NCBI GenBank assembly: GCA_963711395.1
Contig: CAVQEA010000006.1
Location: 26,647-90,646 of the forward strand
Reading direction: 5' to 3'
DNA length: 64,000 nt
Origin: an uncultured delta proteobacterium
GTDB lineage: Bacteria > Desulfobacterota > Binatia > JACPRU01
The position numbers and the translations under genes were made by a program. Positions within the stretch are counted from its first letter, which is position 1. The number at the start of each line of letters is the position of its first letter. Of this stretch, positions 38,752-44,436 are shown piece after piece. The notes under the pieces were generated by a model, which worked only from the letters and a program-made list of their open reading frames with translations, made no database searches and was not told the DNA's origin.

Positions 38752-39904
38752 TCAACGGTCGAGCCGGGCGAGCGCCACGAGGCCGAGCGGAAACGCCCAG
38801 AGTCCGATCGCCGTCAGCCAAGCGAACCAGTGGAGCTTGCCGACCACGCCCAAGGCAAAGAGCACGTAGGCGAACTCGCGGTTGGCCAATGCTTCGAAGA
38901 GCGCCGCCGCGCGCCCGGAAGCACGGCGGCGTACGATCACGAAGTAGACGGCGAGCCAGCACGCGACCACGCCCGCCAGCGCGACGGCGGCGAGCCAGAC
39001 GTAGGGGCCGCCGGGGTCGGCGAAATACGCGCGCAAAGCGACACAGGGGAACAACACCAGGTGCACGAGGTTGTCGCCGATGACGTCGAGCCTCGCCCCC
39101 GAGCGCGATTCCTGGAACTTCAAGCGGGCGATCTCGCCGTCGCAGCCGTCGATGATCGTCGAGACCAGGAACAGCGCGGAGCCGAGGAGGCCGAAGGCAT
39201 ACGTCGAGCGCAGCAGCAGAAGCGAGCCGACGATGCCGAGAGCGATGGAAAAGCAGGTGATCTGGTTCGGCGTGATCGGCCAGCGTGCCAGCCGTCGCGA
39301 AATCGCTTGCGACATCGCCCGATCGACGTAGCGCGCGAAGGCGTTGCCGGTATTGCGCGCCAGGCTTCTGAACAGCGCGTCCTCCGCGCCGGCGACGTCG
39401 GCGGCGGCGACGACGTGCTCGTAGAGCGCGGGCTTCGCGAGCATGCGCCCCGCGTGCGCACGCCGCCGGTCCGGCGCCCAACCGTCGGCGGCGAGCGCCG
39501 CGAGCGCCTCGGCATCGGCGGAGAACGGCCCGTCGGCCGCGGCCGCCGCCGGCTCTCCACGCGACGCGGCGAGGTCGCGCAGGTGCGCCGGCGTCGACGA
39601 TCCAGCGATCCGTGAAGACCACCCAGCGTCCTCCGTCTCGCCGCACGCGATCGAGCCACTGGTCGGGCCCCACGACCTCCCACTGCCGGTCTCCGAGACG
39701 AGGGTCGGCGGCGAGCAAGCCGCGAATGGACGCCTCGGGGCCGGTCGCGACGACCAGCAACCGTTCAAAACCCGCGCGGCACGCGGTGAAGAGCGCGCGG
39801 CGCCACGGCTCCAAACCGCCGATCCGCCAGCCGACGCCCGTACACCAGATCACGATCCGACTGCTCGGCAAGCGTTCAGCGCCGCCGCTGAGATCGAGGG
39901 CCAT
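38752..39904 (-). CDS. CDP-alcohol phosphotransferase with degenerate N-terminal NTP-transferase-like domain (frameshift near 39600)
   Basis: ITPNQIT and the signature [27 protein letters not shown]-terminus [20 protein letters not shown]. Confidence 0.88.
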
Positions 39905-40939
39905 CAGCGGCTCACCACCCCCGGCTCGACGGAGCCGGCGAGCGGAACCGTGTGACCGCCGGAGCGGTACGCGGCGCCGATCATCTCCGCGACGCGCATC
40001 GCCTCGCCGAGGTTGCGGCCGCGACGCTCGGGATGCTGCATCTCGGCGCGAAAGTCTTCGAGCAGCGCGGGAAACCACTCCGGGTGATAGCTGCTCGCCG
40101 ACAGCGCCGGAGCGAACCGCGTCTCCTCCGGCGCCTTGCCGCCGACCGCGACGGCCAGCCGGTCGTCCGTGAATCGCACCTCGCCGAGCGAGCCGCGGGC
40201 GCGTCCCGCGGTGCGTCGCTCGGCTGCGCCCCAGGAGAGCTCGATGCGCGCGCGCAGCGTGCCGAAATCGACCTCGCATTCCACGGTGTCCTCGACGCCG
40301 ACGCCGAGCGTGGTGCCGAGACGCGCGAGGATCGAGCGCGGCACGCGGCCGGTCAGGAACAGCATCAGGTAACAGGCGTGCCAGCCGTGATCCATCAGGA
40401 TGCCCCCGCCCGCCTGCTCGGGGTCGAGGCGCCATCCCGCGTCGGCCGCGCCTTGCGGCGGGTTCGGACGCAGCACCTGCCATTCGATCTCGCCGAGCTC
40501 GCCGATCGCCCCGGAGCGCAGCAAGCCGTGCAGGCGGCGCATCAGCGGCGCGTACTTCCAGTTGTGCACGGTGAACAGCGTGCGCCCGCTCCGCCGCGCC
40601 ACGCGAGAGAGCTCGGCGGCTCCACCGAGATCGACGGCCAGCGGCTTCTCGCAGAGCACGTGGAGCCCGCGCGCGAGCGCCTGCGACACCGCCTGGGCAT
40701 GAAAGCCCGGCGGCGTGGCGACGTCGACGAAGTCGAGCTTCGCCTCGGCTTCGGCCGCCGACGGCGAAATCCGCATAGGCGCGCGCCCCCGGCAGCGCCG
40801 CAGCCACTCGCGCGCGGCGCTCTTCCGAAGGATCGACCACCGCGACGATCTCGAAGCCCGCGGCCAGGCGAAAGCCCGGCAGGTGCCCGAGCTCCGCGAC
40901 CCTGCCGAAGCCGACGATCGCGCCGCGATACTTCTTCAC
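39904..40939 (-). CDS. Gfo/Idh/MocA oxidoreductase (frameshift near 40790)
   Basis: [35 protein letters not shown]. Confidence 0.92.
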
Positions 40940-42281
40940 CGGTAGCTGCGGTCGCGGGCGACCTCGGCGAAGACCTCGTCGAGAACGCCGAGCCCCTGGT
41001 CCATCTCCTCCCGCGTGATCGTCAGGGGCGGGTTGATGCGCACGCGCGGCATGTAGCCCATCAGCAAGAGCCCACGGCGCAGGCATTCGAGAAAGATGCG
41101 CTCGGTCACCGGCCGGGCGAGCGGCTCCTTGGTCTTGCGATCCTTGACGAGGTCGAGCCCGACGAGCAGTGCCGACACCGCGCACGTCGCCGATGAATTC
41201 GTACTTCTCCTGCATGGCGCGCAGCCGCCCCTTCATCTCCTCGCCGAGCATGGCCGAGCGCTCGACGAGCTTCTCGTCGAGCACGGTCTCGAGCGTGGCG
41301 AGCGCGGCGGTGGCGGCCAGCGGATTGCCGCCGTAGCTCGACGAGGCGCCCGAGGGCTTCGCCCAGGGTTCGGCGCGACGAGATCTCCGTCGGTCGAGAT
41401 GACGGCGGTCACCGGGTAGCCGTTCGCCATGCCCTTGCCGGTCGTCATGATGTCCGGAACCACGCCGCTGTGCTCCACCCCGAACATCTTGCCGGTGCGC
41501 GCGAAGCCGGTGATCATCTCGTCGGCGATCAGCAGCGCGCCGACCTCGTGAGCGATGTCGCGGATCGCCGGCAGAAACTCCGGCGGCGGAATCGACGTTG
41601 CCCGCTGTGCCCTGCATGGGCTCGACGAGCACGGCGGCGACGGCGTTGGAGGTGGCGTTCTTGATGGTCTTGCGCGCGAAGTCGGCGCAGGCCACGCCGC
41701 AGCTCGGGTACTCGAGGCCGATCGGGCAGCGGTAGCAGTCGGCGTACGGCGTGAGAAATCGCCCTCCCGGGAGCGGACCCCAGCCGTGCTTGCCCTCGTC
41801 GCCCATCAGGCCCATCACGCCCGTGGTCTTGCCGTGGAAGCCGCCCCAGAAGCCGACGACCTCGTACTTCTTGGTGTACGACTTGGCGAGGCGGATGGCC
41901 GCCTCGACCGCCTCCGCGCCGCTCGAGTAGAGCTGCGCGCGGTCGAGCTTGCCGGGCGTCACCGCCGCGAGCTTCTGGAGAAACGCCAGGCGATTCTCGG
42001 TCGTGAAGCTGCCGACGGAGATCCGTGCGGATCTGCGCTTCCATGCGCGCGACCCAGTGGGGATGCGAGTGGCCGAGGCTCGCCACCGCCACGCCGGCGA
42101 AGAAGTCGACGTAGCGGTTGCCGTCGGCATCTTCGACCGTCGCACCGCGGCCCGAGGTGAGCGTGAGCTCGGACAAGAGCGCGATGCGCTGCAGACCGGG
42201 CGCGATGAGGCGCTGCTCCTCGGCGAAGATACGCCGCGATTCAGGCCCGGGGACGGATGGCGGATTCTGTTTGGCTTTCAT
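40936..42281 (-). CDS. Class III (GabT/ArgD-like) PLP aminotransferase (several frameshifts)
   Basis: [49 protein letters not shown] (PLP Lys), SYGGNP. Confidence 0.92.
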
Positions 42282-43059: not shown

Positions 43060-43750
43060 GAGCCTCGAGGAACCTTTCCGCCGCCTCGAGGTCTTGCGGC
43101 CGATCGACGTCGATCGAATCGCCGCCGCGGTGACCGAAGAGGCGCTCGCCGCGCTCGAGAAGCATGGCGAGGAACTCGCGCAAACGGCCGAGCTTGCGCC
43201 GCCGCGCTTCGTCCACGTGATCGTAGACGCCCGGGTGAAAGACGTAGGCGCCGCTCGTCACCCAGCCGCTGCCCGCGGCCGCGGGTCCGAGCGCGAGGAT
43301 CTCGTCGTTGGCGCCGAGCCGCGCCCAGAGCGGCTTCTCGTCGTCGACCAACGAGGTCACGGCGAGCGTGCCGCACGGGCCCGCCGCCAGCCCCGCAGCC
43401 GCCAGCGCGGGCAGCGCGCCTCGCGCCGTGATGGCGTCGACCGTGGTGAGCAGGAACGGCTCGCTTCGCAAGCAGGGCTCGAGCGCGAAGAAGCTCTCCA
43501 TCGAGCTCGGGGTGGTCTTGACGGTGAGCGCGACGGGGACCGGCCAGCGGCGCTGGCGCACGTAGCTCGCGACCTCGGGCGACTCCGCGTTGACGATCAG
43601 CGCGATCTCCTCGGCCCCGGCCTCGGCGACCGCTTCGGCCGCGCGCTCGAGCAGCGTCTTGCCGCCGACGACGAGGAGCGGCTTCGGGGTGGCGATGCCG
43701 GCGTCGCGGAAGCGCTCGCCCAAGCCGGCCGCGATGATGCCCGCCTTCAA
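43052..43750 (-). CDS. NTP transferase (sugar/polyol-phosphate nucleotidyltransferase)
   Basis: GIIAAGLGERF..PKPL, TPSSMESF, VDDEKPL, SIDVDRPQDL. Confidence 0.9.
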   Translation of the reverse strand: MKAGIIAAGLGERFRDAGIATPKPLLVVGGKTLLERAAEAVAEAGAEEIALIVNAESPEVASYVRQRRWPVPVALTVKTTPSSMESFFALEPCLRSEPFLLTTVDAITARGALPALAAAGLAAGPCGTLAVTSLVDDEKPLWARLGANDEILALGPAAAGSGWVTSGAYVFHPGVYDHVDEARRRKLGRLREFLAMLLERGERLFGHRGGDSIDVDRPQDLEAAERFLEAHA

Positions 43751-44436
43751 CCGGCGAGCTCCACGTCCCTGACCGGGTCGATCTCGGCCAGGTGCGAGAT
43801 CACGCGGTCGGCGACGCCGGGCTCGGGCGGCTCGGCCTCGCCGCGGCGAAGCCAGATGGCGCGCATGCCCGTGCTGCGCGACGCACGCACGTCGCGCTCG
43901 AAGCTGTCTCCGACCATGACGACTTCCGCGGGAGGCAGCTCGAGCCGCTCGGCGGCCAGCCGGTAGATCGCCGGATCGGGCTTCTCCACCCCGACGTGCG
44001 CGGACTCGACGACCGTATCGAGCGCCGCTGCCAGTCCGGCCTCTTCGAGCAACACCTCGAGGTTGCCGTAGAAGTTCGAGACGATGCCGAGCCGAGCGTG
44101 CCCCCGCAGGCGCGACAGCAACGCCCGCGAGCGCTCCCAGCCCTCGACGGTCATGTCGCAGAATCCCTCGATCACGTCGTCGGCGAACCGGCGCGCCGCC
44201 GGCCCCAGCACGTCCAACTGCAGCGCGACGTGGCGCTCGATGAGCGGCCGGAGCCCGTAACCGCGCAGGCGCGCTTCCTCGGCGACCGCGTGGTCGGCGG
44301 CGTAGAACGCCTGCTTGATGTCGGCATCGGGCAGCTCGCAGCCGGCGCGGCGGTAGAGAAACGCCATGCGGTCGAACCAGTGCCAGCCTTCGCCGTCGAG
44401 CGTGCCTCCGTAGTCGAACAGAACGGCACGAGCCAC
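43747..44436 (-). CDS. HAD-family hydrolase
   Basis: LFDYGGTLD, IVSNFYGNL, GVEKPDPAIY, VMVGDS. Confidence 0.9.
   Translation of the reverse strand: MARAVLFDYGGTLDGEGWHWFDRMAFLYRRAGCELPDADIKQAFYAADHAVAEEARLRGYGLRPLIERHVALQLDVLGPAARRFADDVIEGFCDMTVEGWERSRALLSRLRGHARLGIVSNFYGNLEVLLEEAGLAAALDTVVESAHVGVEKPDPAIYRLAAERLELPPAEVVMVGDSFERDVRASRSTGMRAIWLRRGEAEPPEPGVADRVISHLAEIDPVRDVELAG

Follow-up and report, generated by a model that had tools for sequence, protein, structure and literature searches.

The window analysed here, a stretch of 64,000 nucleotides from the genome of an uncultured delta proteobacterium of soil, a member of the Binatia (contig CAVQEA010000006.1), carries on its minus strand, at 38752-44436, six genes in the order HAD hydrolase, nucleotidyltransferase (NTP transferase), ATP-grasp protein (AG), class III aminotransferase (AT), Gfo/Idh/MocA oxidoreductase (GFO) and CDP-alcohol phosphotransferase (CDP-AP). 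We favour, tentatively and at somewhat less than even confidence, the interpretation that this operon builds an inositol-derived phosphodiester headgroup by CDP activation, most likely attached to a lipid, and that it is an extended form of a cluster described in Bacteroidota, the 'alternative inositol lipid cluster'. The headgroup probably bears an amine. The six-gene operon is a variant of a published putative core pathway and not wholly new.

Genes were placed on the minus strand by a codon-position GC plot together with Pfam scans of stop-to-stop segments; because the G+C content of the window is ~70%, raw lists of open reading frames (ORFs) were crowded with spurious frames. As reference for the window copy we used the sister genome G006, whose orthologous cluster (locus L012) is intact. 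Pfam and the comparison with G006 bore out the six families, their coordinates, their 5' to 3' order and the GTG start of HAD at 44436, all of which had been given in an earlier reading of the letters of this DNA (the original prediction). The tight coupling that it described is seen at the four readable junctions, at each of which the start overlaps the preceding stop: HAD and NTP transferase share TTGA, NTP transferase and AG overlap by 8 nt, AT and GFO share GTGA, and the GFO stop and CDP-AP start share TGATG. The AG/AT junction is unreadable owing to indels. The full CDP-AP gene starts at the ATG at 39904, and a 338-aa ORF with a TTG start at 39768 represents only part of it. Because the same six-gene order is intact in G006 and recurs in other phyla, the arrangement is more than chance. 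A promoter and terminator scan was uninformative, with no promoter-like and three terminator-like sites against 4.1 expected.

The window belongs to a metagenome-assembled genome (MAG), G000, of 24 contigs and 78.8% completeness, and the closest AG homologues carry the labels of Candidatus Binatia or Binatota MAGs. Among 41 relatives of G000, 18 encode AG, and 17 of these have their best CDP-AP match no more than 4 kb away; the exception is a fragmented assembly (G018) with its best CDP-AP match on another contig and a weaker one 2 kb away. A scan of species-representative genomes returned at least 599 pattern matches and at least 594 confirmed AG loci. The best 80 loci were kept, and tblastn searches with proteins of G006 served to count the genes around AG in them. 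These loci belong to Binatota, Myxococcota, Thermodesulfobacteriota (whose carriers include the isolate Desulfoferrobacter suflitae), Methylomirabilota, Verrucomicrobiota, Elusimicrobiota, Ignavibacteriota, Bacteroidota (with carriers in Prevotella, Bacteroides/Phocaeicola, Duncaniella muris, Dyadobacter, Sphingobacterium, Olivibacter and Sediminibacterium) and one Thermoanaerobaculia MAG. The expectation that the six genes would be found together in other genomes thus held in G006, in further relatives and in other phyla.

Adjacency was counted only at loci with at least 800 nt of room beside AG. On this basis 61 of 74 loci have NTP transferase immediately upstream of AG. AT is found immediately downstream of AG in 31 of 36 loci outside the FCB (Fibrobacterota-Chlorobiota-Bacteroidota) group, in 7 of 10 loci of the Ignavibacteria type and in 1 of 21 from Bacteroidota; the corresponding counts for AT together with GFO are 26 of 36, 8 of 10 and 1 of 21. 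A tree of AG (75 rows, after six rows with an internal stop, including the Thermoanaerobaculia MAG L099, had been dropped) divides into an FCB branch and a branch of all other phyla, and the presence of AT on this tree needs at least five changes, four of them forced by well-supported branches. The AT/GFO pair forms an accessory module, with at least five gains or losses, on a conserved core of HAD, NTP transferase, AG and CDP-AP. AG is kept without AT and GFO in 21 of 22 Bacteroidota loci and in two further loci, L038 and L059.

Some of the core enzymes also exist as fusion proteins. Of 34 long AG homologues (476-2000 aa, E <= 1e-10), 29 have an N-terminal NTP-transferase domain, one of them (P0136) being an NTP-AG-HAD protein, and two are AG-HAD fusions; the other three comprise a PAS/histidine-kinase chimera and a pair of proteins lacking a precomputed Pfam domain, one of them with a weak CBS match. 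Adjacency and these natural fusions make NTP transferase and HAD the tightest partners of AG, and the fusions of the three argue for soluble enzymes on one small-molecule route that ends at a membrane transferase.

The link to inositol is supported by the distribution of myo-inositol-phosphate synthase (MIPS, PF01658). A match was found in 17 of the 18 AG-positive relatives as opposed to 10 of the 23 AG-negative ones, and, in an even draw of 251 genomes of the window's phylum, in 17 of 21 AG-positive and 137 of 230 AG-negative genomes; completeness is 62-90% in the four AG-positive genomes that gave no MIPS match. Adjacency is stronger evidence than this co-occurrence. With a Binatia-type MIPS query, which may miss divergent forms, MIPS was located within 8 kb of AG in 21 of the best 80 loci. 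Of the 21 AG-positive genomes drawn from the phylum, 6 have MIPS within 5 kb of AG, and in L038 the genes for MIPS, HAD, NTP transferase and AG are contiguous. A co-occurrence with ino1, which the original prediction had proposed to look for, was therefore observed, and its statement that the stretch holds no inositol-phosphate synthase was correct: there was no MIPS match in the window, and the only one in the genome is on contig C11. There (C11:164448-166632, equivalent to L103:5449-7633) the MIPS gene runs into the start of a gene of family PF03706 (LPG_synthase_TM, E 2.9e-44), the product of which is probably a flippase or membrane partner of the pathway.

PF03706 genes also lie within clusters. 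Phocaeicola L081 has one between CDP-AP and HAD, and in L038 (7787-13000), an AT-less deltaproteobacterial MAG, one follows directly after AG, with genes for an outer-membrane efflux protein (OEP) and for MMPL-family proteins next. As a separate observation, the OEP and MMPL genes of L038 suggest export of a product to the outer membrane.

Previous work on Bacteroidota (Heaver et al. 2022, PMC9246714) described, in its main text, a putative 'alternative inositol lipid cluster' of NTP transferase, CDP-AP and HAD, put forward as a three-gene hypothesis and representing the only described non-PIPS route; the same text links the Bacteroidota pathway to fitness in host colonisation. Phosphatidylinositol (PI)-dihydroceramide is reported there from B. 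vulgatus and P. veroralis, both of which have this cluster and are without the B. thetaiotaomicron-type genes, and the authors describe the function of the cluster as unconfirmed (PMC9246714). Its NTP transferase, CDP-AP and HAD are homologous to those of the window operon, and it often lies by MIPS, so that a Bacteroidetes inositol-lipid cluster of this composition, which the original prediction had brought up, is both published and related. The main text of that paper makes no mention of an ATP-grasp gene. In the loci that we compared, the Bacteroidota core consists of NTP transferase, ATP-grasp protein, CDP-AP, PF03706 and HAD, often with MIPS; Prevotella L070 and Phocaeicola L081 have the order NTP-AG-CDP-AP-(PF03706)-HAD, and their AG is orthologous to that of the window. 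From the numbering of the locus tags, the AG gene of B. vulgatus would lie between BVU_RS13095 and BVU_RS13105.

AG, HAD and NTP transferase of G006 match the Bacteroidota loci at 97-156 bits, and the D-x-G-G-T motif of HAD is common to both; CDP-AP of G006 matches 5 of 22 Bacteroidota loci at 46-50 bits. The window operon differs from the Bacteroidota cluster in the insertion of AT and GFO between AG and CDP-AP (HAD-NTP-AG-AT-GFO-CDP-AP), in an N-terminal domain of ~185 aa on CDP-AP, and in the placement of MIPS and PF03706 at a separate locus of the genome, MIPS being adjacent in other carriers. Taken together, the evidence leans slightly toward a lipid over a soluble product, a lean that is tempered by the identity of the nearest relatives of CDP-AP (below).

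Within the core, AG is the member without a name. On its predicted structure it is an ATP-grasp enzyme of its own family. No Pfam family matched AG in the window, G006, Prevotella or Phocaeicola copies, and a Pfam scan of 22 members at E <= 10 gave only scattered weak ATP-grasp matches (ATPgrasp_ST in 6, TTL in 4, Ins134_P3_kin in 2 and R2K_3 in 1). The AlphaFold2 (AF2) model, built from a 22-sequence alignment, has a predicted local distance difference test score of 93, and LysX is its best Foldseek match (E 2.7e-14). Structural alignment by VIA-align yielded Z scores of 21-22.5 with LysX, ArgX and RimK (22.5 for LysX) and ~20 with D-Ala-D-Ala ligases and carbamoyl-phosphate synthetase; among inositol-phosphate kinases, the scores were 18.1 for PPIP5K2, 17.8 for ITPK1, 17.8 for StITPK1, 17.0 for EhITPK1 and 16.7 for AtITPK4. 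When the profile of the AG family was compared with the PDB, the best match was AtITPK4 (E 0.0021), with LysX at 0.011 and ITPK1 at 0.23, and the AtITPK4 alignment covers the K-F-Y strand and the D-x-N-x-x-P-S-F metal site of AG.

In six-frame searches of five genomes, the sole match of the ITPK profile PF05770 was the AG gene of G010 (11.6 bits, E 0.3, cut-off 23 bits), and the RimK profile PF08443 matched other genes and never AG; PF08443 also matched none of the 22 members at E <= 10. TIGR00768 scored AG at 21 bits against a cut-off of 143, and the phmmer and NCBIfam matches to RimK and LysX are weak, leaving AG below the cut-off of both the RimK/LysX profiles and the ITPK profile PF05770. 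The protein has Mg/ATP motifs and, over its whole length, the ATP-grasp fold in common with LysX/ArgX/RimK ligases and ITPK kinases; it is set apart from both by the absence of a significant match to a Pfam model of either and by invariant motifs of its own, an N-terminal R-E-x-R-F-S-P-G and W-L-K-R-G-D-V-H-A. There were 2228 homologues at E <= 0.001 among 8000 candidates scored. Some JGI records call AG homologues 'glutathione synthase/RimK-type ligase-like', and a protein-cluster search with AG gave only clusters named 'hypothetical protein', one of which bears the RimK label on 14% of its members. The modelled fold taken alone slightly favours a ligase, whereas local sequence and gene context would slightly favour an inositol(-phosphate) kinase. 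In P0121, a protein of 691 aa, a region resembling AG (38% identity over 92% of AG) accompanies PAS, HisKA and HATPase_c domains. This may reflect a chimera created by gene calling, or a sensor kinase to which an ATP-grasp domain has been joined.

The likeness of NTP transferase and CDP-AP to a split IPCT/DIPPS, on which the original prediction was built, was recovered with both NCBIfam and the PDB. NTP transferase matches the IPCT half of the NCBIfam IPCT/DIPPS model weakly (6e-9, 35 bits) and, among solved structures, the MurU-like 4y7t (2.6e-7), T. maritima IMPCT 4jd0 (2.6e-4) and A. fulgidus IPCT 2xme (6e-3); it also weakly matches GDP-mannose pyrophosphorylases. It is presumed to be a cytidylyltransferase making a CDP-activated headgroup. 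CDP-AP scores 44.9 bits with Pfam PF01066 (cut-off 22) and 65 bits with the NCBIfam IPCT/DIPPS model NF041135 (5e-18, equivalog cut-off 580), and its PDB matches are AF2299 (2e-18), IPCT/DIPPS (1.8e-9) and PIP synthase (1.1e-6). The catalytic motif D-x2-D-G-x2-A-R...G-x3-D-x3-D is present in the window protein, as seen in its translation and in the alignment with AF2299. As in AF2299, an extramembrane N-terminal domain of ~185 aa precedes a transmembrane domain that begins at about residue 190. IPCT/DIPPS and AF2299 of A. fulgidus (PDB 4mnd, 4o6m) show the same pairing of a cytidylyltransferase with this CDP-AP subfamily, and AF2299 shares layout and catalytic motif with the window CDP-AP. In the window the IPCT- and DIPPS-like halves are separate genes accompanied by four further enzymes, whereas IPCT/DIPPS is a fusion, and the context of the window-type cluster, unlike that of IPCT/DIPPS, points to a membrane lipid.

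Motif I of the window HAD reads D-Y-G-G-T, and D-[FYL]-G-G-T is present in 66 of 71 copies of the cluster HAD (loci L023-L102). In HAD phosphomonoesterases this motif is D-x-D-x-[TV], with the Asp at +2 as general acid/base. Since the cluster HAD is without this general acid, the plain label 'phosphatase' is unsafe; the motif suggests either that the leaving group of the substrate is a good one or that the enzyme has a role other than that of a phosphatase. The best PDB match of AT is GabT (3q8n, 3.9e-72), and its G006 orthologue scores 326 bits with Aminotran_3. For GFO, the best NCBIfam model is IolG (TIGR04380, 86.7 bits against a cut-off of 355), the PDB matches are generic, and the weak NCBIfam matches include an archaeal UDP-GlcNAc 3-dehydrogenase (2.7e-16).

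From these families and their contexts we infer the following route. MIPS, encoded on the other contig beside the PF03706 gene, would make myo-inositol 3-phosphate (Ins3P). AG may act as an inositol(-phosphate) kinase, not a ligase, and together with HAD could re-position or re-install the phosphate. The synthesis of ADP-heptose follows a logic of kinase, phosphatase and nucleotidyltransferase, which the trio of AG, HAD and NTP transferase would mirror. GFO would oxidise one ring hydroxyl and AT would turn the resulting ketone into an amine to give an inosamine, either on the free cyclitol or on a phosphate- or CDP-bound form. NTP transferase would then produce a CDP-(amino)cyclitol, from which the AF2299/DIPPS-like CDP-AP would move the phospho-(amino)cyclitol onto diacylglycerol or ceramide, and the PF03706 protein may flip the product. 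In its boldest form, this proposal would be a widespread Kennedy-type pathway, with at least 594 species-level loci in at least eight phyla, that makes a zwitterionic and so far undescribed membrane lipid, phosphatidyl- or ceramide-phospho-inosamine. AG as an ITPK-like kinase and the D-x-G-G-T HAD would move the phosphate on the cyclitol before CDP activation, and the trio of AG, HAD and NTP transferase, without amination, would supply the biochemistry missing from the alternative inositol-lipid route of gut Bacteroidota. We regard this full version as unlikely.

For the conversion of inositol to an inosamine by a dehydrogenase and a transaminase, which the original prediction had assumed, there is printed precedent in Hyg17 and Hyg8. 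According to the text of PMC10949010, the proposed pathway to hygromycin A uses Hyg18 (MIPS), Hyg25 (phosphatase), Hyg17 (PF01408 dehydrogenase) and Hyg8 (aminotransferase) to make neo-inosamine-2. Compared by family description, this set resembles the route proposed here in bringing together MIPS, an enzyme of phosphatase type, a dehydrogenase of family PF01408 and an aminotransferase; the hygromycin A product is a secondary metabolite, and the text of that paper names no cytidylyltransferase, CDP-AP or ATP-grasp protein. A characterised parallel is CpgD of Caulobacter (PMC12275187), a soluble IMPCT-like cytidylyltransferase, as the window NTP transferase would be. The CDP-activated polar group that it makes is proposed in the text to be passed to a membrane lipid, yielding ceramide diphosphoglycerate, and the transferase of this route, CpgA, is described as uncharacterised (PMC12275187). 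The CpgD route differs in its substrate, phosphoglycerate; its main text names no ATP-grasp protein, HAD or aminotransferase, and the term 'CDP-alcohol' is absent from it (PMC12275187).

Several observations weigh against an inositol-lipid assignment. MIPS is common in the phylum (154 of 251 genomes) and related genomes are not independent samples, so that its co-occurrence with AG is only modestly enriched. The nearest solved relatives of CDP-AP are AF2299 and DIPPS, and the product of DIPPS is soluble. A HAD without the Asp+2 general acid weakens the 'phosphatase' step. AT is a generic GABA-AT-like class III enzyme, known scyllo-inosose aminotransferases belonging to another family, and GFO falls far under the IolG cut-off. 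Globally, the fold of AG is nearer to LysX/ArgX/RimK (Z 21-22.5) than to inositol-phosphate kinases (16.7-18.1), and the ITPK sequence matches are marginal (E 0.002 to 0.3), with the two Ins134_P3_kin matches among the 22 members at E >= 0.075. About nine frameshifts inside 3.3 kb, with clean flanks and no homopolymers, make real decay in this strain possible. Finally, no member of this cluster type has a known enzyme activity or product, the Bacteroidota cluster itself being unconfirmed in the text that describes it (PMC9246714).

The balance of these points differs among the alternatives. A DIPPS-type soluble product, which we judge improbable yet a serious competitor, would arise if NTP transferase made CDP-inositol directly from Ins3P, CDP-AP joined this to another phosphorylated alcohol (either Ins3P or an aminated form of it) and HAD removed the remaining phosphate, giving an (amino)inositol phosphodiester resembling a compatible solute. 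The syntheses of di-myo-inositol phosphate (DIP), phosphatidylglycerol and bacterial PI all proceed by transfer and then removal of the remaining phosphate. Such a scheme fits the best matches of CDP-AP to IPCT/DIPPS and AF2299, the weak matches of NTP transferase to the IPCT half and to solved IPCTs, and the solubility and mutual fusion of three of the enzymes, and a CDP-AP~HAD fusion in Prevotella veroralis would suit a pair that transfers and then dephosphorylates (main text of Heaver et al. 2022, PMC9246714). It leaves AG without a role, relies on a HAD lacking its general acid, and does not sit well with the PF03706, MMPL and OEP genes in or beside the clusters, including the PF03706 gene beside MIPS in the window genome, or with the PI-dihydroceramide reported from species that have only this cluster type (PMC9246714). 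The carriers are soil, gut and sediment bacteria. This habitat range also disfavours a soluble product, since DIP is a solute of hyperthermophiles.

Rather less probable, in our estimate, is a role of AG as carboxylate-amine (or ester) ligase, in which it would attach an aminoacyl or acyl group to the aminated cyclitol headgroup before or after transfer of the headgroup. The nearness of its fold to LysX/ArgX/RimK and to D-Ala-D-Ala and D-Ala-D-lactate ligases, its weak phmmer and NCBIfam RimK/LysX matches and the RimK-type name on some JGI homologues are consistent with a ligase. Because AG is a core member that is kept without AT and GFO in nearly all Bacteroidota loci and in L038 and L059, the amine can hardly be the substrate on which AG acts throughout the family; a conserved function in acylating the new amine is unlikely, and the aminoacylation step of the original prediction is disfavoured. 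The Pfam RimK profile passes over AG in all six frames of five genomes, AG is fused to NTP transferase and HAD and not to an aminotransferase, and no gene that would supply a carboxylate is conserved in the cluster. A very improbable alternative is that the AT/GFO pair serves lipid A in the manner of GnnA and GnnB, which make UDP-GlcNAc3N, with the CDP-alcohol neighbours being incidental since lpxA lies downstream. The downstream position of LpxA, past the small yacG with which its codons overlap, here and in G006 and G002, and the archaeal UDP-GlcNAc 3-dehydrogenase among the GFO matches would fit this. LpxA is found near AG in only 1 of the 80 loci outside this genome, the AT-GFO pair accompanies NTP-AG in several phyla, and AT is a class III enzyme (Aminotran_3), unlike the aminotransferases of the GnnB/WbpE type, which belong to the DegT (DegT/DnrJ/EryC1) family.

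Two further candidates were considered and are not favoured. A LysW-type amino-carrier pathway (LysX with a LysJ-like enzyme) had been suggested by the LysX fold of AG and the ArgD/LysJ-like matches of AT; no LysW-like gene was seen, the downstream zinc-ribbon protein being YacG, a neighbour in this family only. An amino-pentitol headgroup (of the aminopentanetetrol type) from pentose phosphate was judged less likely because the adjacency of MIPS points to inositol.

As the original prediction had hinted, the window copy contains indels. Four of the six genes (AG, AT, GFO and CDP-AP) are frameshifted by about nine indels of 1-2 bases at ~39.5-42.8 kb; HAD, NTP transferase, LpxA, the DUF4412-like gene and ParB are free of frame disruptions. 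AG changes frame near 42700 and is also locally disrupted at 42293-42406. AT has at least four single-base frameshifts (42025, 41594, 41392/41376 and one more near 41171-41250), and in its high-scoring segment pairs with the G006 orthologue, which is intact at 449 aa, the frame changes at 42026, 41593 and ~41374/41171. GFO has one frameshift at ~40760, with segment pairs in two frames, and CDP-AP one at ~39589, the 391-aa G006 orthologue aligning in two window frames. Within the individual frame pieces, identity to G006 is 58-93%, and the AG family motifs are still encoded, spread over two frames. The indel sites are C-G-rich, non-homopolymer contexts.

We compared the window at 40700-43100 with Logan contigs from four soil-metagenome runs of four studies. 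No run held more than 0.19 of the sampled window words, and the contigs, which are short pieces of relatives, mostly 90-99% alike, inform single sites only and leave gaps in cover (e.g., 42482-42886 in run X1). Contigs lacking exactly one window base were found at 40760 (one base fewer in a contig from run X4), 41376, 41392, 41594, 42025, 42293 and 42341, and these seven sites coincide with frame changes of the window. The frameshifts are most likely consensus errors or strain-private lesions and not the state of the population, in which we read the operon as probably functional. Strain-specific decay would instead make it an array of pseudogenes that produces nothing here, whatever the intact operon does elsewhere. 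The confinement of the lesions to this segment and their position outside homopolymer runs fit such decay, which we nevertheless consider quite improbable: all lesions are indels of 1-2 bases, identity to G006 persists piece by piece, the family motifs are retained, close contigs from four independent studies are without the extra base at seven sites, and a 78.8% complete MAG in 24 contigs would be typical of an indel-rich long-read consensus. The indel cluster at 39500-42800 may itself be a systematic consensus error, e.g., at a modified motif, rather than a random one.

The original prediction also held that no characterised pathway has this exact gene set. None was found in the literature covered, which lacked most subscription journals and supplements, and to this extent the claim stood; it did not stand insofar as the core had already been published as a putative pathway. 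Within the same literature we found neither the AG member, its fusions and its wide phylogenetic range, nor the six-gene AT/GFO form, the MIPS-PF03706 pairing and the non-canonical HAD motif. Bacterial inositol lipids were long thought to be rare, and the module described here is much broader, extending over soil, sediment and gut lineages of many phyla. It always includes a fourth, overlooked enzyme, AG, which has no Pfam model and in some organisms is fused to the cytidylyltransferase and HAD. In the six-gene form, the additional dehydrogenase and aminotransferase lead us to predict a headgroup of the amino-cyclitol type. Confirmation would establish a new class of polar lipid that could be searched for in environmental lipidomes, would give functions to several thousand 'hypothetical proteins', and would provide testable steps for the Bacteroidota pathway.

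Features of the operon and its flanks in the window
Feature	Position	Strand	Basis
HAD-superfamily hydrolase, 229 aa, intact	43747..44436	-	Pfam Hydrolase/HAD_2/Hydrolase_like, E 4e-18; 69% identity to G006 orthologue
Nucleotidyltransferase (NTP_transferase / NTP_transf_3), 232 aa, intact	43052..43750	-	Pfam; 75% identity to G006
ATP-grasp protein AG, unnamed family	~42295..43059, 3' end approximate	-	ATG at 43059; AF2 fold
Class III aminotransferase (AT), GABA-AT/acetylornithine-AT-like	~40936..42290, start approximate	-	Aminotran_3 pieces in three frames
Gfo/Idh/MocA NAD(P) oxidoreductase (GFO)	39904..40939	-	Pfam GFO_IDH_MocA, _C3, _C; GTG start
CDP-alcohol phosphotransferase (CDP-AP), ~391 aa	38752..39904	-	Pfam CDP-OH_P_transf; ATG at 39904
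YacG-like zinc-ribbon protein	38531..38719	-	Pfam YacG, E 1e-20; directly downstream of CDP-AP
LpxA (UDP-GlcNAc acyltransferase)	37731..38534	-	Pfam Acetyltransf_11 + Hexapep; 81% identity to G006 LpxA
DUF4412-like protein	44487..45341	-	Pfam DUF4412, weak, E 2e-4; 69% identity to G006
ParB	~45.4-46.3 kb	-	Codon-position GC plot + Pfam

The genes that flank the operon vary among carriers. The DUF4412-like gene, 50 nt upstream of HAD, is a neighbour kept within the family and, among the best 80 loci, was found only in L023. The adjacency of LpxA, which lies downstream by way of yacG in this genome, G006 and G002, is lineage-specific. YacG is likewise a neighbour in this family only and stands outside the counted pathway genes. 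Beyond LpxA there is a divergent LysR gene, and divergent YkuD and Asd genes lie upstream of ParB.

The yacG gene, situated between CDP-AP and lpxA, has a stop codon that overlaps the lpxA start, an apparent translational coupling. The position of YacG beside a lipid A gene is unusual, and the adjacency was seen only in this bacterial family. Elsewhere in the window, at 32139-34540, a class I S-adenosylmethionine (SAM) methyltransferase on the minus strand adjoins a B12-binding radical SAM protein with DUF4070 on the plus strand. The segment at 24001-28000 has a G+C content of 0.62-0.63, compared to ~0.70 elsewhere, and may be of foreign origin.

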